Notes: generated by a model not told the origin, from the sequence alone. A stretch of DNA of 64,000 nucleotides from an uncultured Myxococcales bacterium (GCA_903895725.1 CAITUV010000043.1:11298-75297), one strand, 5' to 3'; positions 17,945 to 28,987 are shown, counted from the first letter of the stretch. Program-made: numbers and translations.

Positions 17945-18574
17945 GTGGCACCGACTCCCAGCTCCAAGGACCCGAAGGCCAGCTTCTTCGTCCCGACCGT
18001 AATCGAGCAGACCCCCCGCGGCGAGCGGGAGTGGAGCATCTTCTCCCGTCTGCTCAAGGACCGGATCATCTTCATCGGCTCCGGCATCGACGATCTCGTG
18101 GCCAACGTGGTCATCGCCCAACTCCTGTTCCTCGAGTCCGAGGATCCGGAGAAGGACGTCTCCATGTACATCAACTCGCCCGGCGGCTCGGTCATGGCTG
18201 GCCTTGCCATCTATGACACCATGCAGTACGTCCGCTGCCCCATCACCACGCTGTGCGTGGGGCAGGCGTTCAGCATGGCGGCCATCCTGCTGGCGGCCGG
18301 AACCAAGGGCAAGCGCTTCGCCCTCCCGCATGCACGCATGCTCCTGCATCAGCCTCTCGGAGGGTTCTCCGGCCAGGCGGTCGACGTGGACATCCAGGCC
18401 CGGGAGATTTCCCAGGTCAAGGACCAGCTCAACCGAATCATCGGTCGTCACACCGGCAAGGAGCTGGAACAGGTCCGCCAGGATACCGACCGCGACTTTT
18501 ACCTGGGCCCCCAGGAGGCCCGGGATTACGGCATTATCGACCACGTCATCGAGCCGCGAAAGCCGGTCGCCTGA
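17945..18574 (+). CDS. clpP: ATP-dependent Clp protease proteolytic subunit
   Basis: GTG 17945 after GAAGGAGGG RBS; ClpP motifs ([19 protein letters not shown], active-site region [18 protein letters not shown]). Confidence 0.95.
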
Positions 18575-18603
18575 GAGGGCCTGAAGGGCTGCTCGGTGCC
18601 CTT

Positions 18604-18633
18604 TTGCTTGAATCTCCCAGCGGCTTCTATATA
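18604..18633 (+). promoter_or_regulatory. candidate internal promoter upstream of clpX (TTGCTT-N18-TATATA)
   Basis: AT-rich patch cttttgcttgaatctcccagcggcttctatatattaac in the clpP-clpX intergenic region. Confidence 0.35.
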
Positions 18634-18668
18634 TTAACTCTTGGCTTTGGAAGGGGAGAGGTGGGCCT

Positions 18669-19937
18669 TTGGAAAGGAATCGTGACGGTTATCTTCGGTG
18701 CTCCTTCTGCGGCAAGACCCAGAAGGAGGTGCGTAAGCTCATCGCCGGCCCCGGGGTCTACATCTGCGACGAGTGTGTCACCCTCTGTGGCGAGATCATC
18801 GCAGATGAAATCGAGAAGGATGAGAAGCTCCCCGACGGGAGGCAGCTTCCCCGCCCGTGGGAGATCAAGAAGCAGCTCGACGAGCACGTCATCGGCCAGG
18901 AGCTTGCCAAGAAGGTGCTGGCCGTTGCGGTCTACAACCATTACAAGCGGATCGGCCAGCCCAAGAAGGCCCGTTCGCCCAGGACCGTAGAGCTCCAGAA
19001 GAGCAACATCCTTCTTATCGGCCCGACCGGTACCGGCAAGACGCTGCTCGCACAGACTCTGGCCAAGCTGCTCAACGTGCCGTTCTCCATGGCCGATGCC
19101 ACCTCGCTGACCGAGGCCGGATACGTCGGCGAGGACGTGGAGAACGTCGTGCTCGGGCTTCTCCAGGCCTCTGAGTTCGACGTGGAGACCGCGTCCCGGG
19201 GCATCGTCTACATCGATGAGGTGGACAAGCTCGCCCGCAAGGCCGGCGGCCCGTCCGTGACCCGGGATGTCGGCGGCGAGGGCGTCCAGCAGGCCCTCCT
19301 CAAGATTCTCGAGGGGACCGTGGCCAACATTCCCCCCAAGGGAGGACGCAAGCACCCCCAGCAGGAGTTCATCCCGATCGACACGACCAACATTCTGTTC
19401 ATCCTCGGGGGCAGCTTCGAAGGGCTCGATACCATCATCGAGCAGCGCATCGGCCGCAAGACCCTCGGTTTCGGAGCGGATGTCAAGGCCGTCGGCAAGA
19501 AGGCCATCGGCAAGATCCTCGAGCGGGTCGAGCCCGAGGATCTGCAGAAGTTCGGCATGATCCCCGAGTTCGTCGGCCGCATCCCCGTGGTGGCTTCTCT
19601 GCACGAGCTCAACGAGGAGGCCCTGGTCGACATCCTGACCAAGCCCAAGCACGCGCTCACCCGCCAGTTCAGCTACCTGCTCGAGATGGACGGCTGCGGT
19701 CTCACGTTCACGGAAGAAGCACTCAAGGCCGTGGCGGTCCGGGCCCTCGAGCGCAAGTCCGGTGCCCGAGGTCTTCGAGCCATCCTCGAAACGCTGCTGC
19801 TGGACGTGATGTTCGAGGTCCCCTCCCTGGGGAACGTGAAGGAAGTCATCATCGACGAGAACGTGGTCGGCGGCAAGCGCAAGCCCATCTACGTCTTCAA
19901 GAACGACAGCGAGGTGGTGCGGAGCGAACGGGCATAG
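18669..19937 (+). CDS. clpX: ATP-dependent Clp protease ATP-binding subunit ClpX
   Basis: TTG 18669 after AAGGGGAGAGG RBS (first start codon after the in-frame stop); zinc-binding CSFCGK...CDEC; Walker A GPTGTGKT. Confidence 0.95.
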
Positions 19938-19974
19938 CCGCCCCTTCCCGGACCGTCTCTCGAGGGGTCAAGTC

Positions 19975-22404
19975 ATGAACGACATCAAAGTCCTCCCCCT
20001 CCTGCCCCTGCGGGACATCGTGGTCTTCCCGTACATGGTCGTCCCCCTGTTCGTCGGCAGGGACAAGTCGATTGCCGCACTCGACAAGGCCATGGCCGGC
20101 GACCGCCTCCTCGTGCTCTCGGCCCAGAAGCAGGCCAAGACCAACAACCCCGAGGCTGAGGACCTGTTCACCATCGGCACGCTCGGGGCCGTGATCCAGC
20201 TCCTCCGACTGCCGGACGGCACGATCAAGATGCTGGTCGAAGGCAAGGGACGCACCCGCATCCGCCGCTTCGTCCAGGAATCCCCGTTCTTCATGGTTGA
20301 AGCCGAGACCCTCGACGAGAAGTGGGAGCGCACCACCGAAGGGGAGGCCCTCATGAGGGCCGTCCACCAGGCCTTCGAAAACTATGTCAAGCTGAGCAAG
20401 AAGGTCCCCCCGGAAGTGCTCATGTCCGTGGCATCCATCGACGACCCCGCTCGCCTCGCAGACTCTCTGGTCGCCCATCTCTCCCTGAAGCTCGTGGACA
20501 AGCAGCTCCTGCTCGAAACGGCCGACCCGGTCCAGCGCCTGGAGAAGCTGCTCGAGCTCATCCAGTCCGAGATGGACATCCTCATCGTCGAGCGCAAGAT
20601 CAAGAGCCGCGTCCGCAAGCAGATGGAGAAGAGCCAGCGCGATTACTACCTCAACGAGCAAATGCAGGCCATCCAGAAGGAGCTCGGCGACAAGGACGAC
20701 TTCCGCAATGAGATGGCCGAGCTCGAGGAGGCCGCTGCCCGTAAGAAGCTGCCCAAGGAAGCCCGTGAGCGCCTCGACAAGGAGATCCGCAAGCTCAAGA
20801 TGATGGCCCCCATGTCCGCAGAGGCCACCGTCGTCCGCAACTACGTCGACTGGATCATCTCTCTGCCGTGGGGCGAATACAGTCAGGACCGCCTCGACAT
20901 CGCCGAGGCCGAGAAGATCCTCGATGAGGACCACTACGGGCTCGAGCGCGCCAAGGAGCGCATCCTCGAGTACCTCGCAGTCCAGGCCCTCGCCAGCTCG
21001 ATCAAGGGACCGATCCTCTGTCTCGTGGGTCCCCCCGGTGTCGGCAAGACGTCACTGGCCCGCTCCATCGCCCGCTCCACCGGCCGGGAGTATGTCCGCA
21101 TCTCCCTGGGCGGAGTCCGCGACGAGGCCGAGATCCGCGGTCACCGCCGCACTTACATCGGTGCGCTGCCCGGCAAGATCATCCAGAGCCTTCGCAAGGT
21201 CAAGACCAGCAACCCGGTCTTCCTCCTCGACGAGGTCGACAAGATGACCGCCGATTTCCGCGGGGACCCGTCGTCCGCCCTGCTGGAAGTCCTCGACCCC
21301 GAGCAGAATCACACCTTCATGGACCACTACCTCGACCTGGACTATGACCTCTCCAGGATCATGTTCATCACGACGGCCAACTACCGGGACGGCATTCCGG
21401 TCCCCCTGCAGGACCGAATGGAGATCATCGAGCTGTCCGGCTACACTGAGTTCGACAAGCTCCAGATCGCCCAGAACTTCCTCGTCCGCAAGGAGAAGAA
21501 GGCCAACGGCCTCGAGGACGTGGACGTCGCCTTCTCCGAGGACGCCGTCACCACGCTCATCCGGCACTACACCCGGGAAGCCGGCGTGCGCAGCCTCGAG
21601 CGCGAGGTCGCCTCGATCTTCCGCAAGATCGCCAAGGAGTACATCCGCAAGGGCAAGCCCGCCGACGCCTCGTTCCGGGTCAGCGCCCAGCGGGTCGTGA
21701 AGTACCTCGGCCCTCACCGCTTCACCTATGGCAAGATCGAGCGCAAGGACACCATCGGAGCGGTCAACGGGCTGTCCGTGACCACCGTGGGCGGCGACCT
21801 CCTCACGGTCGAAGCCTCCTCCGTCCCATCCGCCGACCAGAACGCCGGCAAGCTCATCATCACCGGCCTCGTGAAGAAGGTCATGGAGGAATCGGGCCAC
21901 GCGGCTCTGACCTACGTGCGCTCCCGTGCCTCGGCCCTGGGCATCCCCAACGAGGTCTTTGCCCATGTCGACGTGCACGTCCACATCCCCGAGGGAGCCA
22001 TCCCCAAGGACGGCCCGTCGGCCGGGATCACCATGGCCACGGCCATCACCTCCGCACTGACCCGGATTCCGGTCTGGGGCGATGTCGCCATGACGGGCGA
22101 GATCACCCTTCGCGGCCGCGTCCTTCCCATCGGCGGAGTCAAGGAGAAGCTCATCGCCGCACATCGAGGCGGTATCCGCAAAGTGCTGCTTCCCAAGGAG
22201 AACGAGAAGGACCTCAACGACGTCCCCGCCGCGGTGCGCAAGGGGCTCGAGCTCGTGCTGGTCGAGCACATGGACGAAGTCCTCTCCCACGCCTTGAAGG
22301 TGGAGAAGGGGGATCTCTTCAGGCCCGAGACGACCCCGCCCCCGCCCGCCAAGAGCCGAGGTCGGGGCGATTCGGCAGGAGTTCGCACCAGGAACGCCAA
22401 TTGA
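19975..22404 (+). CDS. lon: ATP-dependent protease Lon
   Basis: N-terminal Lon substrate-binding domain ([27 protein letters not shown]); AAA+ Walker [11 protein letters not shown]-terminal protease domain with catalytic Ser in [12 protein letters not shown]. Confidence 0.95.
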
Positions 22405-22467: not shown

Positions 22468-22977
22468 ATGAACTTCAAGTTCACGCATGATTTCGACGCA
22501 CCCGTGGAAGAGCTCGAGCGGGTCATGTTCCACGACGGGCTCATCCCCCTCCTGGAAAAACGGATGCCCAACATCATCAAGATGGAGCCGCTCGAGATCC
22601 GCCGGGACGGAGCCAGGCTTACCCGCCGGGTCCGCTACCTCCCGGTCCCCATGATCAGCAGCATCGGAGTCAAGAAGGTCGAGCCGGAGTGGATGGAGTT
22701 TTTCGAGGAATCCAGCTACGACTTCAAGTCCCATTCCGGCACGTTCCGCAATGTCCCCGCCCGAAGGAAGATTGCGGCCCTGCTCTCCAACTCCGGGACC
22801 CTGCGTCTGGAGTCGAACGGCCGGGGAGGCTCCCGCCAGACGATCGAAGGGGAGCTCTGCGTGTCGGTCTTCATGGTCGGCAAGATTGCTGAGCGCATCA
22901 TCCACTCCAACGCGATCAAGCTGCTCGAGGAGCAGGCCGCCGTAGTTGCCGGAGTGCTGAAGAGCCGGGAGCTCTGA
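22468..22977 (+). CDS. hypothetical cytoplasmic protein (SRPBCC/DUF2505-like by motif impression only)
   Basis: ATG 22468; 169 aa; no signal peptide; family assignment is a guess. Confidence 0.55.
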   Translation: MNFKFTHDFDAPVEELERVMFHDGLIPLLEKRMPNIIKMEPLEIRRDGARLTRRVRYLPVPMISSIGVKKVEPEWMEFFEESSYDFKSHSGTFRNVPARRKIAALLSNSGTLRLESNGRGGSRQTIEGELCVSVFMVGKIAERIIHSNAIKLLEEQAAVVAGVLKSREL

Positions 22978-23083: not shown

Positions 23084-23758
23084 TCAGTCGTCTTTCAGGA
23101 GCGTGTTCCAGTCAACTTCGGACATCGGGGGGAGCTTGACTTCGTGGCGTTCCTCGATTTCCTTGCGGCAGAGGTCGCACAGCAGACCGGTCTCGTTGTC
23201 CACCGTCGAGATCTTCCCTTCGGCATCGTTCATCATGCACTTGGGGGTAGGACAGTGGAGAAGCCCGAGCACGTGGCCAAGCTCGTGATTCACCACCTTG
23301 ATGGTGCGGATCGTCACCTTCCGCTTATCCGAGGTGTTGCGCCCCAGTCGGTAAGTTGAAACCACGCACGACTTGCCTCCCACCTGTCCGAGACCAAAGA
23401 TGCCCCAGTCCTTGCTTTTTCCCTTGGTCGTCGAGATGTCCACCGACGTGAAGCCGATCATCGCGGTGCAGTCCGCCGGGGCCTCCTCGTCCAGGAACGC
23501 CAGGAGCTTCTCGGCCCGGTAGCGTCCCCGGGGCGCATACCAGGCCGACTTGGGGAGCGACTGCTTCTCCAGCACCCGGACCGGGAGGGAGTACACGGCC
23601 TTTACCCCCCGCACGGCCGGCAGAAGCAGGGAACGATCATACTTGCCCAGCGGGAGAATGCAGACGGAGGGGGGCGAGGCCGAATCAGGTGATGCTTCAG
23701 GCAGCGGCCCGACGGGCATCAAGGCCGCAAGGACGAGACCGGCAACCAGCAGGTTCAT
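23084..23758 (-). CDS. secreted archaemetzincin-type zinc metallopeptidase (M54-like)
   Basis: Exact archaemetzincin signature HEXXHXXGX3CX4CXMX17CXXC (HELGHVLGLLHCPTPKCMMN-17aa-CDLC); N-terminal signal peptide MNLLVAGLVLAALMPVG; start ATG overlaps the GH84 stop (ATGA). Confidence 0.8.
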   Translation of the reverse strand: MNLLVAGLVLAALMPVGPLPEASPDSASPPSVCILPLGKYDRSLLLPAVRGVKAVYSLPVRVLEKQSLPKSAWYAPRGRYRAEKLLAFLDEEAPADCTAMIGFTSVDISTTKGKSKDWGIFGLGQVGGKSCVVSTYRLGRNTSDKRKVTIRTIKVVNHELGHVLGLLHCPTPKCMMNDAEGKISTVDNETGLLCDLCRKEIEERHEVKLPPMSEVDWNTLLKDD

Positions 23759-26220
23759 CGAAGACCTCCAACAAGCGGAGCGGCCTTGCCCCCCTCCAAC
23801 TCGTGCTCGCCTTCCCGTACGAACAGCTCGAAGCCGGTTGCGGCAACCACCGGGCCGTCGCTCGCCACGACCACCACCCGGAGGAACCCGGGGCGCTCGG
23901 CCACGAGCCTTTCGTCATCCGTCGGGCGGATGCCGTCGCCAAGAAGCCGACACGAGGCCGGGCGCTGTACGCAGGGATTCGGGAACGGTTCTGAAGCGAC
24001 CACCTCGGTCGGAAACAGAGGGGGGGGGGCAAGAGCAGAGGCAGAGTTGCGGACAGGCTCGAGATTCCGCAGGCATCTGTTCCGGGCGCGCTCGAGCAGG
24101 GGCTGGACAGCCTCCTCCAGACCGAACCACCTCCAACTCAACGGGGAGCGAGGTGAGTCGGCCAGCAGGGCAGCGAGTCGCCCGGGTCCCCACGGATGAG
24201 CCTCCTCCGAGGCCAGCAGCGACACTGCCTCCATTGCGGCCTCGAGCTGCAGCCGGCGCTTGATCAGGGGGGCGGCAAAATCATTGGCCAGGGGGGGCCG
24301 ACAGGCCTCCTGCCACAGCATCGAGTCGGAAAGATAGCGCTGAGCGAGGGCCTGGAGCAGGTCGTCGGCCGGCTGTAGGACGGCATCGTGCCGGCCTCCG
24401 TCCAGGGCAGCGAGGAAGCGCTGGACGAGAGCGGACAGCTCGGGCAGCGCGAGTCGATCAGGAAGCATCTTGGGGCTCCCCTCGTGGTCCTGTGCGAACT
24501 CCGTGAGCAGGGCCCCGGAGCCGGCAGGCAGACCGAACGCGGTGGCCAGGTCATCCGCAGAAGGGCGGGGCGGGCGGCCGGCCACCAGCTCACCGTAGGA
24601 GACGAGCGAGAAGATGCTGGCCGTGGCATGCGTCATCGGGTTTGAGAGCAGTCCGGAAATGGACGGGAACAGGTCGCTCGCGCGGCCAGTGACAGGCCCG
24701 AGGAACAGCCGCTGACTGCGGGCGGCGAAGTCGTTGACCGGGAAGTTGTCCCACACCAGCGGCTTGCGGCCGAGGAGCCGGGCGATTCCGTCTGCGTGGT
24801 GCGGATCCATCCGGGCGTCGAAGACTCCGTCCCCGGTCCACATGACCGGGACTTCGGGGGGGATGTGCCCGAGTGCCGTCAGGTAGCCCCGATGCTCGTC
24901 CTCCAGGGAGTCGGCCGTCCCCGCATAGACCGTGCCGACGAACTGGAGAGAGACTCCCCGGGCCACGAGGTGCTCATGGAGACGCTCGGTCAGCCTCGCG
25001 TGGGCCGCACCCACCTGCGGGGTCTTGGCCGACTTGCTGATGTCGTCCATCAGCAGGGTGACCGAGGGGAAGCCCACGTCCAGCAGGGGATCCAGCTTCG
25101 ACAGGAGCGCTGCGAAATCCTCTTCCGACCCCGGGGCCATGGACAGTCCCGGGGAGATGCCGAGCGAGACCTGCATGGACAGGGCGGAGGCCTCGGCCAG
25201 CAGTGCGGAGAATCGGAGAAGCTCCTCGGCAGGGTAGGGGGTTCGCCAGTCGTCCCGGTGCAGCGGATCGTCTTTGGGCGCGTAGACGAGCTGGTTCATT
25301 CCAATGGCGGCGGCCAGCCGGAGCAGCTCCGTCCGCTCCGCCCAGGTCCACGGGCGACCGTAGAACCCTTCGACCACACCGAACACGGGCAGGGAGGGGG
25401 CAACCGGGGGCACGAACTCCAGGCGGGCAGGCTCCGACCACGAGCTCGCAGCGCCTCCGAAGCCGATGGCGCGGACCGCATACTCCACCGGGCCGGCCGG
25501 CGGGCGATCCAGAGCGGACACGGACCCCGATGCCGTGCGGAACACATGAACGGGCCGGCCTGCAATCCGGCGCTCCACATCGAATGCCAGGGCCCCGGGC
25601 ACGGGGGCCACCCGGACAACGACCCCGTGCTTCCAAGCCCGAACCTCAGGGCGAGGCGGCGACACGGGGATCGTGGGCTCGGCGTAGAGCTCCAGCGCCG
25701 ACACCTCCAGGTCTCCAATCGGTGCCGAGCTGCCGATGCGGTCGGGCCGATCCGGGCGGCCGTTGTCAACCTCCTGTGCGGGCAATCGGACCCGAAGCCA
25801 TCTTCCTGGGCGGCGGGGAGGCCGGCAGACGACCGAGCTGCCTTCCACGACGCACGAGGAATGCGGCAGAACAACGCCGGCCCACTCGACCCGCTCGGGA
25901 AGGACCGCCGGCGAGGCGTACCGCAGCACGATGCGGGTCAGCGTGACGGCATCTCCTGCCGCTCCCTGGACGCGGGCAACGATCTCCGAGGGGTCTCCAG
26001 GCTCCGGTCTCCAGGCTGTCGCCGGATCCAGATCCTGCAATGCCAGCGGCCCCTCATGTCGATCATCCACGTCGCAGCGCTCGCTCCGGAGCGAGCTGAC
26101 TCGGAGCAGGGCCGACGGGGCCAGATCCAGCCCGGCGTCAGTCGGGCCCGGGACGAGGCAAAGGAATGGGAGACAGACTGCAGTGGACAGCAGGAGGAGC
26201 TGCAGGGCCGTTGCGATCAT
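23755..26220 (-). CDS. secreted glycoside hydrolase family 84 protein (O-GlcNAcase / beta-N-acetylglucosaminidase-like)
   Basis: C-terminal 822 codons of ORF 23755..26706 from ATG (plus cat 26218..26220); signal peptide MIATALQLLLLSTAVCLPFLCLV; GH84 block VVEGFYGRPWTWAERTELL...LVYAPKDDPLHRDDWRTPYP; catalytic Asp pair LLMDDIS. Confidence 0.8.
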   Translation of the reverse strand: MIATALQLLLLSTAVCLPFLCLVPGPTDAGLDLAPSALLRVSSLRSERCDVDDRHEGPLALQDLDPATAWRPEPGDPSEIVARVQGAAGDAVTLTRIVLRYASPAVLPERVEWAGVVLPHSSCVVEGSSVVCRPPRRPGRWLRVRLPAQEVDNGRPDRPDRIGSSAPIGDLEVSALELYAEPTIPVSPPRPEVRAWKHGVVVRVAPVPGALAFDVERRIAGRPVHVFRTASGSVSALDRPPAGPVEYAVRAIGFGGAASSWSEPARLEFVPPVAPSLPVFGVVEGFYGRPWTWAERTELLRLAAAIGMNQLVYAPKDDPLHRDDWRTPYPAEELLRFSALLAEASALSMQVSLGISPGLSMAPGSEEDFAALLSKLDPLLDVGFPSVTLLMDDISKSAKTPQVGAAHARLTERLHEHLVARGVSLQFVGTVYAGTADSLEDEHRGYLTALGHIPPEVPVMWTGDGVFDARMDPHHADGIARLLGRKPLVWDNFPVNDFAARSQRLFLGPVTGRASDLFPSISGLLSNPMTHATASIFSLVSYGELVAGRPPRPSADDLATAFGLPAGSGALLTEFAQDHEGSPKMLPDRLALPELSALVQRFLAALDGGRHDAVLQPADDLLQALAQRYLSDSMLWQEACRPPLANDFAAPLIKRRLQLEAAMEAVSLLASEEAHPWGPGRLAALLADSPRSPLSWRWFGLEEAVQPLLERARNRCLRNLEPVRNSASALAPPPLFPTEVVASEPFPNPCVQRPASCRLLGDGIRPTDDERLVAERPGFLRVVVVASDGPVVAATGFELFVREGEHELEGGKAAPLVGGLR

Positions 26221-26645
26221 GGTTCCGGTGCCTCGACGGTCAGCGACTTGAGCGACAGCTCGAAGAACGGAGTCCCGTTGGCGCACCAGCGGACCGAGGA
26301 CGAGCGCAGCTCCACCGACCAGTTGTGTAGCTCGGGCGGGAGCGCACTTGCGGCTTCCTTGCGGCAGAAGCCGGTGACGGCGTCCGGAGGCAGCTCGGGC
26401 ACGGAGCTGTCGGTGACATCGACGCGGATCCAACGGTCCGCCACCCGCATTTCGAGCGGGGGACAGCTGCATTCCACCGGGTTGCAGCGGATCACGGCGC
26501 TTCCCTGCCGCAACTCCTCCCTGGCCATGCCCAGCAACGTAGCGGCCCGATTCTCCATCCGGGATCCGGAAGAGCAGCCGACGGCCATCAGCAATGCCAA
26601 CGGAGCTGCGGCCAGAGGCAGCCCGGCAACCCACCAGGTTCTCAT
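26217..26645 (-). CDS. small hypothetical lipoprotein (142 aa, Cys-containing)
   Basis: Start ATG (plus cat 26643..26645) after GGAGGTGG RBS; lipoprotein signal MRTWWVAGLPLAAAPLALLMAVGC; ATGA overlaps with the UbiA-family gene upstream and the GH84 gene downstream. Confidence 0.6.
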   Translation of the reverse strand: MRTWWVAGLPLAAAPLALLMAVGCSSGSRMENRAATLLGMAREELRQGSAVIRCNPVECSCPPLEMRVADRWIRVDVTDSSVPELPPDAVTGFCRKEAASALPPELHNWSVELRSSSVRWCANGTPFFELSLKSLTVEAPEP

Positions 26646-27526
26646 GATGGTCCACCTCCGAAGTACAGGATGACCACGGCAGCAGCCCCCCAGGCAAAGG
26701 CGGCACAGAGGATCCACGGGTCTGACATGAGGGTATCGGTCGGCGGGGCCGTCCGGCGGGTATCGTGTGCGAGCCGGTAGAACCGTCCCAGGCCGAACAC
26801 TACCAGCGGCACGGTCAGCACCAGCGCCCGCGTGCCGAAATTGGCCAGTGCCCTGTCCGACAGGGTGTAGGCGAGGAAGGTCCCGCAGGCCGCAAGCCCG
26901 GTGAGTCCGAATGCCCAGCGCGTGGGAACCGGGCCGTACAGTCTCAGCACGCTGCGGGTCCGCCGGCCCTCCTCCCCCATCAGCATCAGCTCGTGTACCC
27001 GCTTTCCAAGCGCCAGGTAGGCGGCCAGCAGGAATGTGCACGACAGAATCCAGAACGACACCGGCACCGGTATGGCCACTCCGCCGCCGACCACCCGCAG
27101 GACGAATCCCAGCGCAATGCAGCTCACATCCGCAATGGGAATCTGCTTCCCCTTGAACGAGTAGAATAGATTGAGCAGCAGGTAGCCCAGCAGGGTCAGG
27201 GCAAGCTGTGGGGACAATATCAGGCCGGCGGCCAGAGTGAGCACAGCCAGCCCGACGGCACTGGCACCGGCTACCCGGACCGGAAGCGCTCCCGACGCGA
27301 TGGGACGAAGCTTCTTGCGCGGGTGATGCACGTCCACCTTTCGGTCTGCAATGTCGTTGGCCAGATAGACCACTCCGGACGTGATGGAAAACAGCAGGAA
27401 GGCCGTAAGAGCCCGGAGCTCGGCACCGACCTCGCCGGCCTTGAGCGCAAACAGCAGCGGGGTGAGAACGAACACGTTCTTGGCCCACTGCCGGGGCCGC
27501 ATCCCCTTGAGAACCAGCAGCACCAT
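26642..27526 (-). CDS. UbiA-family prenyltransferase (decaprenyl-phosphate phosphoribosyltransferase-like)
   Basis: ORF 26642..27625; start placed at ATG (plus cat 27524..27526); polytopic membrane protein; motifs MRPRQWAKNVFVLTPLLFA and YLANDIADRKVDVHHPRKKLRPIASG (NDxxDxxxD ... RPIASG). Confidence 0.75.
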   Translation of the reverse strand: MVLLVLKGMRPRQWAKNVFVLTPLLFALKAGEVGAELRALTAFLLFSITSGVVYLANDIADRKVDVHHPRKKLRPIASGALPVRVAGASAVGLAVLTLAAGLILSPQLALTLLGYLLLNLFYSFKGKQIPIADVSCIALGFVLRVVGGGVAIPVPVSFWILSCTFLLAAYLALGKRVHELMLMGEEGRRTRSVLRLYGPVPTRWAFGLTGLAACGTFLAYTLSDRALANFGTRALVLTVPLVVFGLGRFYRLAHDTRRTAPPTDTLMSDPWILCAAFAWGAAAVVILYFGGGPS

Positions 27527-27679: not shown

Positions 27680-28987
27680 ATGAAGCTTGCGATTGTGGGG
27701 ACGGGCTATGTGGGCCTTGTGGCAGGCGTCGGATTCGCCGAGAGCGGGAACGACGTCATCTGTGTGGACAAGCTGCCCGAGAAGGTGCGCTCACTCTCGG
27801 AAGGGCGGGTGACCATCCACGAGCCGGGGGTCGAGGCATTGCTCCAGCGGAACCTCGCGGAGGGGCGTCTCTCTTTCACCACGGACCTCGAGCATGCCGT
27901 TCGGAATTCTTACGTGATCTTTATCGCGGTGGGAACTCCTCCCGGTGAGGACGGCTCTGCTGACCTCAGCCACGTGCTCGACGTTGCCGAGGGGATCGGC
28001 CGCTACATGGACGGCTACCGGGTCGTCGTGTCCAAGAGCACGGTCCCGGTCGGGACTTCCGAGAAGATCCGGGCGAAGATTGAGAGTTTGACCTCTCACC
28101 CGTTCGATGTGGTCTCCAACCCGGAGTTCCTCAAGGAAGGGGCCGCGCTGGGCGATTTCATGAAGCCGGACCGGATCGTCGTCGGCACCCGGTCGGAGAG
28201 AGCCCGGGAAGTGCTCAAGGAGCTTTACTCGCCGTTCCTGCGCACCATGAACCCCCTCCTCTTCATGGACGAGCGCAGCGCAGAAATGACGAAGTACGCG
28301 TGCAACGCCATGCTTGCTGCCCGTATCTCGTTCGTCAACGAGATCGCCAATCTGTGCGACCTGGTTGGAGCGGACGTGCACATGGTGCGCATGGGCATGG
28401 GCACCGATCCCCGCATTGGCAACAAGTTCCTGTTCCCCGGCATCGGTTACGGCGGTTCCTGCTTCCCCAAGGACGTGGCCGCGCTCATGAAGACCGGGCA
28501 GGAGCACGGCTATCCCCTGCGCGTGCTCGAGGCGGTCCACTCGGTCAACGATTCGCAGCGCAAGCTCATGGCCCGCAAGTGTATCCTCCATTTCGGGGGC
28601 CGGCTGCATGGGATCACCATCGCCGTGTGGGGGCTGGCGTTCAAGGCCAACACCGATGACATGCGGGAGGCCCCGGCCGCCGTCATCATCCGGGAGTTGC
28701 TCGACCACGGTGCCCGAGTCGTGGCGTTCGACCCGGCTGCCATGAGCTCGGCCCGGGAGATCTTCGGCGATACCATCGGCTACGCCCAGACCGCGTACCA
28801 GGCGGTCGAGGGGGCGGACGGCCTCATTGTCGCCACCGAGTGGAACGAGTTCCGGACCCCCGACTTCCCCAGGATGCGGCGTCTCATGGCCGGCAACGTC
28901 CTGTTCGACGGACGCAACCTCTACAGCCCGGAGCGCATGAAGGAGTACGGTTTCCGATACTACTCCATCGGGAGAGGGGTGAGCTGA
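27680..28987 (+). CDS. ugd: UDP-glucose 6-dehydrogenase
   Basis: N-terminal Rossmann MKLAIVGTGYVGLVAG; catalytic Cys motif GIGYGGSCFPKDV; C-terminal UDP-binding domain. Confidence 0.9.
   Translation: MKLAIVGTGYVGLVAGVGFAESGNDVICVDKLPEKVRSLSEGRVTIHEPGVEALLQRNLAEGRLSFTTDLEHAVRNSYVIFIAVGTPPGEDGSADLSHVLDVAEGIGRYMDGYRVVVSKSTVPVGTSEKIRAKIESLTSHPFDVVSNPEFLKEGAALGDFMKPDRIVVGTRSERAREVLKELYSPFLRTMNPLLFMDERSAEMTKYACNAMLAARISFVNEIANLCDLVGADVHMVRMGMGTDPRIGNKFLFPGIGYGGSCFPKDVAALMKTGQEHGYPLRVLEAVHSVNDSQRKLMARKCILHFGGRLHGITIAVWGLAFKANTDDMREAPAAVIIRELLDHGARVVAFDPAAMSSAREIFGDTIGYAQTAYQAVEGADGLIVATEWNEFRTPDFPRMRRLMAGNVLFDGRNLYSPERMKEYGFRYYSIGRGVS

Follow-up and report, generated by a model that had tools for sequence, protein, structure and literature searches.

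A predicted exported archaemetzincin encoded in the genome of an uncultured Myxococcales bacterium

We analysed a gene located at 23084..23758 on the minus strand of a 64,000-nucleotide stretch of DNA from an uncultured Myxococcales bacterium (GCA_903895725.1 CAITUV010000043.1:11298-75297), hereafter the window. With a probability of roughly 70%, its product is a small zinc metallopeptidase that works outside the cytoplasm and has a single domain, of the M54 (archaemetzincin) fold. It is an ordinary member of an exported bacterial subfamily, which is uncharacterised although databases already label its members, and its link to a neighbouring GH84 glycosidase gene is local. The result for the window gene, a typical member of its branch, is mostly deflationary. 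To our knowledge, few metzincin families are as poorly understood as the archaemetzincins, and we know of no member with a known physiological substrate. The exported branch offers another experimental entry to them, with three kinds of export signal, no pro-domain, an extra cysteine pair and a sub-clade that has lost half of its Cys4 site.

Family membership and predicted fold

The open reading frame (ORF) listing of the window gives a protein of 224 residues, followed by a stop codon, and a database record holds an identical protein (P0001, NCBI/ENA). The sequence-only reading had claimed an exact copy of the archaemetzincin signature HEXXHXXGX3CX4CXMX17CXXC. The claim holds: the six-frame translation of the window contains a single exact match, HELGHVLGLLHCPTPKCMMNDAEGKISTVDNETGLLCDLC, at 23168..23287 on the minus strand (residues 158–197), and the number of matches expected by chance from the six-frame residue frequencies is 7e-9. 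With the third histidine written out, the signature reads HEXXHXXGXXHCX4CXMX17CXXC; its core is HELGH, with the glutamate kept. From the sequence, H158, H162 and H168 are assigned as the zinc ligands, E159 as the general base, M176 as the methionine of the Met-turn, and C169, C174, C194 and C197 as the Cys4 site. The three motif histidines, E159, C174, M176 and C194 are invariant in 119/119 homologues.

Profile searches give the same family. The hidden Markov model Pfam PF07998 (Peptidase_M54) matches residues 57–202 with 51.2 bits against a gathering threshold of 24.4 (E = 2.1e-13), confirming the M54 membership that had been proposed. Significant sequence matches in the PDB are to archaeal AmzA only (2x7m, 1e-11; 4axq and 3zvs, ~4e-10; 3lmc, 6e-6).

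The AlphaFold2 model, calculated from an input alignment of 40 homologues, has a mean predicted local distance difference test score (pLDDT) of 90.9 and a predicted template modelling score (pTM) of 0.86, and is poorly defined at residues 1–30 only. When the model is compared with the PDB by Foldseek, the top five hits are AmzA chains from four structures, with template modelling scores (TMt) of 0.76–0.92 (4axq, 0.92; 3zvs, 0.90; 2x7m, 0.86; 3lmc, 0.76) and root-mean-square deviations of 2.0–2.9 Å. The next family, the matrix metalloproteinases, follows at E ~1e-3, at least seven orders of magnitude weaker than AmzA. According to Foldseek, the predicted metzincin catalytic domain of the AmzA fold spans residues 32–205 (23144..23665, minus strand) and includes C33 and C97. 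By motif, profile and predicted fold, the window protein is thus an M54 archaemetzincin, placed outside the subfamily that NCBI names by curation.

The window protein and archaeal AmzA (Archaeoglobus fulgidus, 4axq/3zvs; Methanopyrus kandleri, 2x7m; Methanocorpusculum labreanum, 3lmc) have in common the predicted fold, the three histidines, the glutamate, the Met-turn, the four cysteines, the single-domain size and the absence of a pro-domain, the folded domain of the window protein starting 9 residues past its leader. They differ in that their sequence identity is only 22–27%, and in that the window protein has an extra 31 residues of leader and linker, a conserved 20-residue tail at the C-terminus, and the cysteines C33 and C97. 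The archaeal sequences end near residue 201–205 of the window protein in the alignment. The tail (residues 206–224; 23087..23143, minus strand), delimited by the family alignment and not found in archaeal AmzA, carries the near-invariant residues P210 and W217, and the pLDDT is 94–95 at residues 200–220.

The family signature is also common to human AMZ1 and AMZ2 and to AMZ-tk of Thermococcus. Diaz-Perales et al. in 2005 reportedly described AMZ1 and AMZ2 as aminopeptidase-like enzymes. AMZ-tk is a zinc-dependent protease that relies on His and Glu residues (PMC4681839). None of these characterised M54 peptidases is described with an export signal, and the AMZ-tk paper mentions none (PMC4681839).

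Export signals of the bacterial branch

The earliest possible start of the peptidase ORF is its first ATG. A Shine-Dalgarno sequence, GGAGG, read directly from the sequence at 23765..23769 (minus strand), lies within the 3' end of the upstream GH84 gene and is separated from this ATG by a spacer of 6 nt. The ATG overlaps the TGA stop codon of the GH84 gene by 4 bp, as ATGA. Together, the GGAGG and the overlap support the choice of start codon.

From this start, the N-terminus MNLLVAGLVLAALMPVG is a hydrophobic stretch of 15 residues, with a maximum Kyte-Doolittle 10-mer of 2.86, and makes a good h-region. Residues 1–22, MNLLVAGLVLAALMPVGPLPEA (23693..23758, minus strand), are predicted to be a Sec-type leader from their hydrophobicity, low pLDDT (51–64 across residues 1–20) and family-wide equivalents. 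The leader starts with MNLLVAG in the window protein and its two nearest homologues. It is followed by a Ser/Pro-rich linker, SPDSASPPS (residues 23–31; 23666..23692, minus strand), which has low-to-intermediate pLDDT and varies in length and sequence across the family alignment. Strand 1 begins at residue 32.

The sequence-only reading had singled out a secretion signal at the N-terminus. An export-type N-terminus is present, but it is not special to this gene. A hydrophobic leader, defined as a Kyte-Doolittle 10-mer of at least 2.0 upstream of the domain, precedes the domain in 228 of the 244 relatives with N-terminal coverage. Many of the remaining relatives, and many distant members, carry lipoboxes (LLLSAC, FLGSC, LITGC) or classic Tat motifs (SRRSFLK, SRRHFLQ, KRRTFLS). 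Across phyla, the position of the leader is kept and its sequence is not. The occurrence of three different export signals on the same domain is strong evidence, at the sequence level, that the domain works outside the cytoplasm. Judged by these signals, export is a trait of the whole bacterial clade rather than a peculiarity of the window gene, and export of the window protein itself is predicted with good support.

The clade is large. A search of 5.8 billion proteins returns 497 matches; the best 120 of the 497 are all 190–270 residues long and many of them carry the JGI label 'archaemetzincin', the few NCBI names among these 120 being 'hypothetical protein' and 'matrixin family metalloprotease'. 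A library clustered at 50% identity contains 198 clusters at E <= 1e-30 and 1058 at E <= 1e-10. A scan of one genome per species confirms 219 loci, in Myxococcota/Polyangia/Kofleriaceae, Bradymonadales, Verrucomicrobiota (Luteolibacter, Haloferula, Akkermansiaceae, Chthoniobacter), Spirochaetota/Leptospirales, Elusimicrobia, WOR-3, Fibrobacteria, Armatimonadota and others. The relatives place the source of the window in a lineage of uncultured 'Deltaproteobacteria'/Myxococcota-type bacteria.

The proposal of a bacterial archaemetzincin is therefore upheld by motif, profile, predicted fold and the lineage of the relatives. The suggestion that a bacterial or exported member is unusual does not stand: the clade is large and carries JGI labels, and archaemetzincins have already been stated to occur in 'archaea, bacteria, and eukarya' (PMC4681839). 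We came across no account of an exported branch in bacteria in the archaemetzincin literature that we searched.

Nearly all loci come from metagenome-assembled genomes (MAGs). Almost the only one from a named strain is that of Haloferula sp. BvORR071 (NZ_BATP01000001; L037 10022-10648). The longest ORF at this locus begins with TTG; its N-terminus is rich in Pro and Ala and lacks a hydrophobic leader, which implies a different start or a different route of export. If the strain is cultured, its orthologue would be a possible experimental handle.

Cysteine pair and Cys4 site

All of the 120 closest homologues keep both C33 and C97. Members from Verrucomicrobiota, Spirochaetota and other groups have Ala at position 33 and usually Tyr, Phe or His at position 97. 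The pair is also absent from the archaeal enzymes, M. kandleri AmzA having Tyr at position 97. On a neighbour-joining tree (197 sequences, with the archaeal enzymes as root), the two positions switch state together ~5 times, and only four sequences (L025, L030, L050 and L039) combine C97 with a residue other than Cys at position 33. In the AlphaFold2 model, C33 and C97 are positioned at the N-terminal ends of strands E32–37 and E99–104, respectively, which we take to be neighbouring parallel strands of the metzincin sheet. Because the two residues are invariant, are gained and lost jointly, and sit at adjacent strand starts, they probably form a clade-specific disulfide. Such a pair fits an oxidising compartment. 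An alternative role of C33 as a lipoprotein cysteine was rejected: 'PSVC' is not a lipobox, and the residue lies 15 residues past the hydrophobic stretch, inside strand 1, with a pLDDT of 98.

At the Cys4 site, C174 and C194 are invariant, whereas C169 and C197 are both present in 40/119 homologues and both absent in 79/119, and never occur singly. Their loss is one event on the tree, in a clade of ~100 sequences found in Myxococcota and Bradymonadales only (homologues P0034-P0120; loci L007-L010, L015, L016, L034, L038 and others; Kofleriaceae, Bradymonadales, Polyangia and others). The replacements are H, Y, G, V, D or L at position 169 and S, T or E at position 197, and the clade no longer matches the textbook archaemetzincin signature. 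That exactly two cysteines are kept clade-wide, while the other two positions are diversely replaced, points to a C174–C194 disulfide in place of the Cys4 zinc site in these proteins. A C169–C197 disulfide was also considered, with repeated independent co-loss as its proof; this argument is weakened by the single event on the tree. Judged by conservation, the four cysteines of the window protein may form either a structural zinc site or disulfides. Members with textbook Tat motifs mostly have all four cysteines (the exception, P0213, reads CCCT), which would fit zinc loading in the cytoplasm before export. New here are the C33/C97 pair, probably a disulfide, and the sister clade with two of the four zinc-finger cysteines.

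Both states have parallels among other metzincins. At the equivalent place, the secreted M64 igalysins and CLCA1 have retained a second zinc site, formed by a ligand after the third zinc ligand and by cysteines two residues before the Met of the Met-turn, before helix C and in the first turn of helix C (bioRxiv 10.1101/2025.10.18.683246). A cysteine-rich zinc site is therefore compatible with an extracellular location. These proteins differ from the window protein in having the motif HEXXHXXXGXXDEY, Glu instead of Cys as first ligand and a much larger multi-domain architecture, and neither the PDB sequence search nor the Foldseek search yields a significant match between them and the window protein. 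In the secreted adamalysin/reprolysin-type metzincins (for example ADAM33 and BaP1), two disulfides occupy the position of the archaemetzincin Cys4 site (Graef et al., PMC3427221). By analogy, the exported bacterial sister group with two of the four cysteines suggests the same zinc-to-disulfide solution. The adamalysins differ in their domain organisation and in having pro-domains, and match the window protein only marginally in sequence (ADAM33, E = 0.34).

Proposed mechanism and points against it

In the mechanism that we propose, the Sec-type leader (residues 1 to ~22) would carry the protein across the inner membrane, and the catalytic domain (residues 32–205), following the Ser/Pro linker, would fold in the periplasm or beyond. 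Catalysis would proceed by the standard metzincin mechanism, with the zinc on H158, H162 and H168, E159 as the general base and M176 in the Met-turn. C169, C174, C194 and C197 would stabilise the domain, as the structural zinc site of the family or as disulfides, and the clade-specific C33–C97 disulfide would probably join strand 1 to strand 3. As the product of the final cistron in a translationally coupled operon (see below), the peptidase would be co-expressed with exported proteins related to the envelope and to glycans. What the analysis shows directly are the features of the sequence, the fold, the family, the operon junctions and the export signals across the family, whereas export itself, cleavage, the zinc or disulfide state, peptidase activity and substrate are inferred.

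Several points weigh against this reading. First, the score with NCBIfam NF033823 ('archmetzin'), the model behind naming in the NCBI annotation pipeline, is 121.3 bits, below the curated cut-off of 145. Three further members of the exported clade also score below this cut-off (123.0, 96.3 and 116.7 bits), which fits the NCBI names of clade members; proteins of this branch are consequently often annotated as 'hypothetical' or 'matrixin'. Second, archaeal AmzA is inactive in standard protease assays, its active sites being occluded (PMC3427221), so that an intact motif is no guarantee of measurable proteolysis. Third, the n-region of the leader has no Lys or Arg, and a canonical AXA cleavage site is absent. 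The best candidate site, PEA↓S, has Pro at -3, and the other candidates break the -3/-1/+1 rule as well (Asp is at -3 in DSA↓S, and Pro is at +1 in several others). Cleavage of the leader is accordingly uncertain, and on these two grounds the leader could be an uncleaved signal anchor instead of a cleaved signal peptide. In favour of export, the acidic residues E21 and D25, which follow the leader, fit an N-in, C-out orientation. Fourth, no neighbouring gene is conserved across ~150 loci, and a substrate cannot be named from the gene neighbourhood.

The lack of Lys or Arg in the n-region and of a canonical AXA site would favour a protein that stays in the cytoplasm, like the characterised archaeal and human enzymes, with a hydrophobic N-terminus that is no export signal. 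We consider this very improbable. The leader is conserved in position across phyla without conservation of sequence, lipoboxes and Tat motifs substitute for it in other members, and a leader-bearing GH123 domain does so in a fusion protein described below. In addition, the archaeal structures begin at strand 1 and have no such extension, and the conserved cysteine pair of the clade is of a kind expected in an oxidising compartment.

A second alternative accepts the fold and disputes the activity. The protein could be a non-proteolytic binding or regulatory protein, like CarG of Myxococcus xanthus, or a silent structural protein of the envelope. CarG is a myxobacterial member of the superfamily with a Cys4 zinc site and thus provides a bacterial precedent (PMC3427221). 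The host is from a Myxococcota-like lineage, the window protein matches the CarG-type model NF033824 (Myxo_non_zincin) weakly, with 43.8 bits, and the inactivity of archaeal AmzA in vitro points in the same direction. However, this score is far below the equivalog cut-off of 250, and the catalytic Glu is replaced by Gln in CarG (HQXXH), a cytoplasmic co-factor that partners a transcription factor (PMC3427221), whereas the window protein has HEXXH and belongs to an exported family. The invariance of E159 and the three histidines in the 119 homologues points to selection for catalysis. We therefore regard a non-proteolytic role as improbable and retain an exported peptidase as the preferred reading.

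The operon and its GH84 gene

The peptidase gene is the last of a four-gene operon on the minus strand, in which all three junctions are ATGA overlaps. The first gene (26642..27526, 294 residues) encodes a UbiA-family prenyltransferase by Pfam (UbiA); it is nearest to decaprenyl-phosphate phosphoribosyltransferase, scoring 219.6 bits with NCBIfam NF008977 against a cut-off of 234. The second (26217..26645) encodes a predicted Cys-rich lipoprotein of 142 residues with the leader ...LLMAVG↓CSSGS and gives no match in Pfam or NCBIfam. In ~6 related loci, a homologue of this lipoprotein is encoded between UbiA and the peptidase. In Tannerella, genes for small inhibitors (potempins) are co-transcribed with metzincin proteases, and by analogy the lipoprotein could inhibit the peptidase or act as its partner.

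The third gene (23755..26220, 821 residues) encodes a GH84 beta-N-acetylglucosaminidase by Pfam PF07555 (NAGidase; 233 bits). The match covers residues 281–544, and the translation contains the adjacent catalytic Asp-Asp pair (MDD) in LLMDDIS; ~280 N-terminal and ~275 C-terminal residues are without a Pfam match, and the score with the NCBIfam equivalog model is below the cut-off (165.8 against 1000). The hydrophobic leader of the protein, MIATALQLLLLSTAVCLPFLCLVPG, has no basic n-region, as in the peptidase, which may be a habit of the organism.

Divergent from UbiA and upstream of it is a gene for a UDP-glucose 6-dehydrogenase (TuaD/AglM-like; 27680-28987, plus strand). Together with UbiA, it suggests a context of envelope-glycan biosynthesis for the operon. 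Downstream, the genes convergent on the peptidase are those for DUF2505 (22468-22977, plus strand), Lon, ClpX, ClpP (Lon, ClpX and ClpP at 17945-22404, plus strand) and trigger factor. A scan of the operon for promoters and terminators gives nothing beyond the shuffled expectation.

The sequence-only reading had described the peptidase gene as coupled to the GH84 gene. The coupling is real in the sense of the ATGA overlap and the translational coupling that it implies, but it is confined to close relatives (82–88% identity), as a recent arrangement of one lineage and not a functional pair kept in evolution. With GH84 and its 4-bp overlap, the arrangement recurs at 88% peptidase identity (L081, L082, L086), and GH84 lies immediately upstream of the peptidase at 82% identity (L001). 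Loci with 49–58% identity (L003, L004, L006, L013) have the order UbiA, small ORF, peptidase / DUF2505, Lon without GH84; the UDP-glucose 6-dehydrogenase gene adjoins this order in L004 and L006. At 61% identity (P0004), the peptidase gene is apparently alone, with opposite-strand genes on both sides, beside DUF2505. Across the order-level clade, the peptidase keeps no neighbourhood other than DUF2505-Lon (L003, L004, L006, L013, L014, L083). Since GH84 is present only at identities of at least 82% and absent from the more distant syntenic genomes, a single narrow lineage either gained it by insertion or alone retained it. As a conserved partner, it was rejected because it occurs in the lineage of the window only.

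Links to HexNAc-cleaving glycosidases

In this branch, a partner of general occurrence was not found. All-versus-all clustering of the ORFs within 6 kb of the peptidase, in 80 genome loci and the window, gives no neighbour family present in more than 6 loci, the larger clusters being antisense shadows of the peptidase ORF. A Pfam census of the immediately adjacent ORFs in two independent sets of loci shows heterogeneous neighbours.

Links to glycosidases that cleave N-acetylhexosamine (HexNAc) occur sporadically. In a fusion protein of 687–708 residues, a signal peptide is followed by the N-terminal and catalytic domains of GH123, a beta-N-acetylgalactosaminidase family, and by an M54 domain without its own leader. 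The fusion occurs in three contigs from different metagenomes (L085 2063-4126; L168 5001-7127; L169 1924-4050), which form two clusters with 85% identity. Separate GH123-peptidase gene pairs were sought among the relatives of the fusion and none was found; no peptidase gene adjoins the stand-alone GH123 relatives (79% and 61% identity). In an Akkermansiaceae MAG, the peptidase gene is preceded on the same strand, at a distance of ~450 nt, by a gene for an exported GH20 hexosaminidase (L050 7459-9462 and 9914-10552). In a deltaproteobacterial MAG, a gene for an exported GH18 chitinase-like protein lies 70 nt downstream of a peptidase gene of the Tat/lipobox type (L077 10643-11944 and 9704-10573). 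With one crude detector, HexNAc-cleaving enzymes make up 3/154 adjacent ORFs and 0/789 non-adjacent ORFs of the same loci; the chance that all three flagged ORFs are adjacent if placed randomly is (154/943)^3, or ~0.004, for a category that was defined post hoc, after the data had been seen. A second sample of ~100 adjacent ORFs from 67 non-redundant metagenome loci contains no new case. The links are thus sporadic, independent, unreplicated in the second sample and suggestive.

These links bear on the possibility, implied by the sequence-only reading, that the peptidase and GH84 are a functional pair and that exported archaemetzincins generally partner HexNAc-cleaving glycosidases. The glycosidase would strip beta-linked GlcNAc or GalNAc from a glycopeptide, a glycoprotein or a peptidoglycan-derived substrate, and the peptidase would cut the peptide. 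The ATGA overlap and the location of the Shine-Dalgarno sequence within the GH84 gene make co-expression obligatory in the window, and both proteins have export leaders; the GH123-M54 fusion and the GH20 and GH18 neighbours are independent associations in other lineages, and the count for adjacent ORFs points the same way. Nevertheless, we consider the pair unlikely. GH84 is restricted to relatives with at least 82% peptidase identity, genomes with the syntenic UbiA-lipoprotein-peptidase / DUF2505-Lon order are without it, and the 61% orthologue appears to stand alone. The glycosidase category was chosen after the fact and gained no case in the 67 metagenome loci, the neighbours are unrelated in >95% of loci, and the stand-alone relatives of GH123 lack a peptidase neighbour.

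A broader version, which we find more doubtful again, holds that the exported bacterial archaemetzincins are 'glyco-peptidases' acting beside exo- and endo-beta-N-acetylhexosaminidases on HexNAc peptides, and that the clade also records a transition from a zinc finger to disulfides, towards the disulfide-stabilised secreted metzincins. If this were true, the substrates would be O-GlcNAc or O-GalNAc glycoproteins or else fragments of peptidoglycan, from prey or from the envelope of the cell itself, and the GH84 coupling, the GH123 fusion and the GH20/GH18 adjacency would be independent traces of the partnership. An exported peptidase with a local GH84 link remains our preferred reading, for which the occasional glycosidase fusions provide hints at substrates.

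The M54 domain occurs in two further long frames. One homologue of low GC content (P0234, 319 residues) has ankyrin repeats between its signal peptide and the M54 domain, an unusual ankyrin-peptidase fusion of the exported type. At another locus (L058 6929-10615), the M54 domain is the sole Pfam match, at the C-terminus, of an open frame of 1228 residues. Upstream of the domain, the frame is probably spurious, a product of high-GC DNA and not a real fusion.

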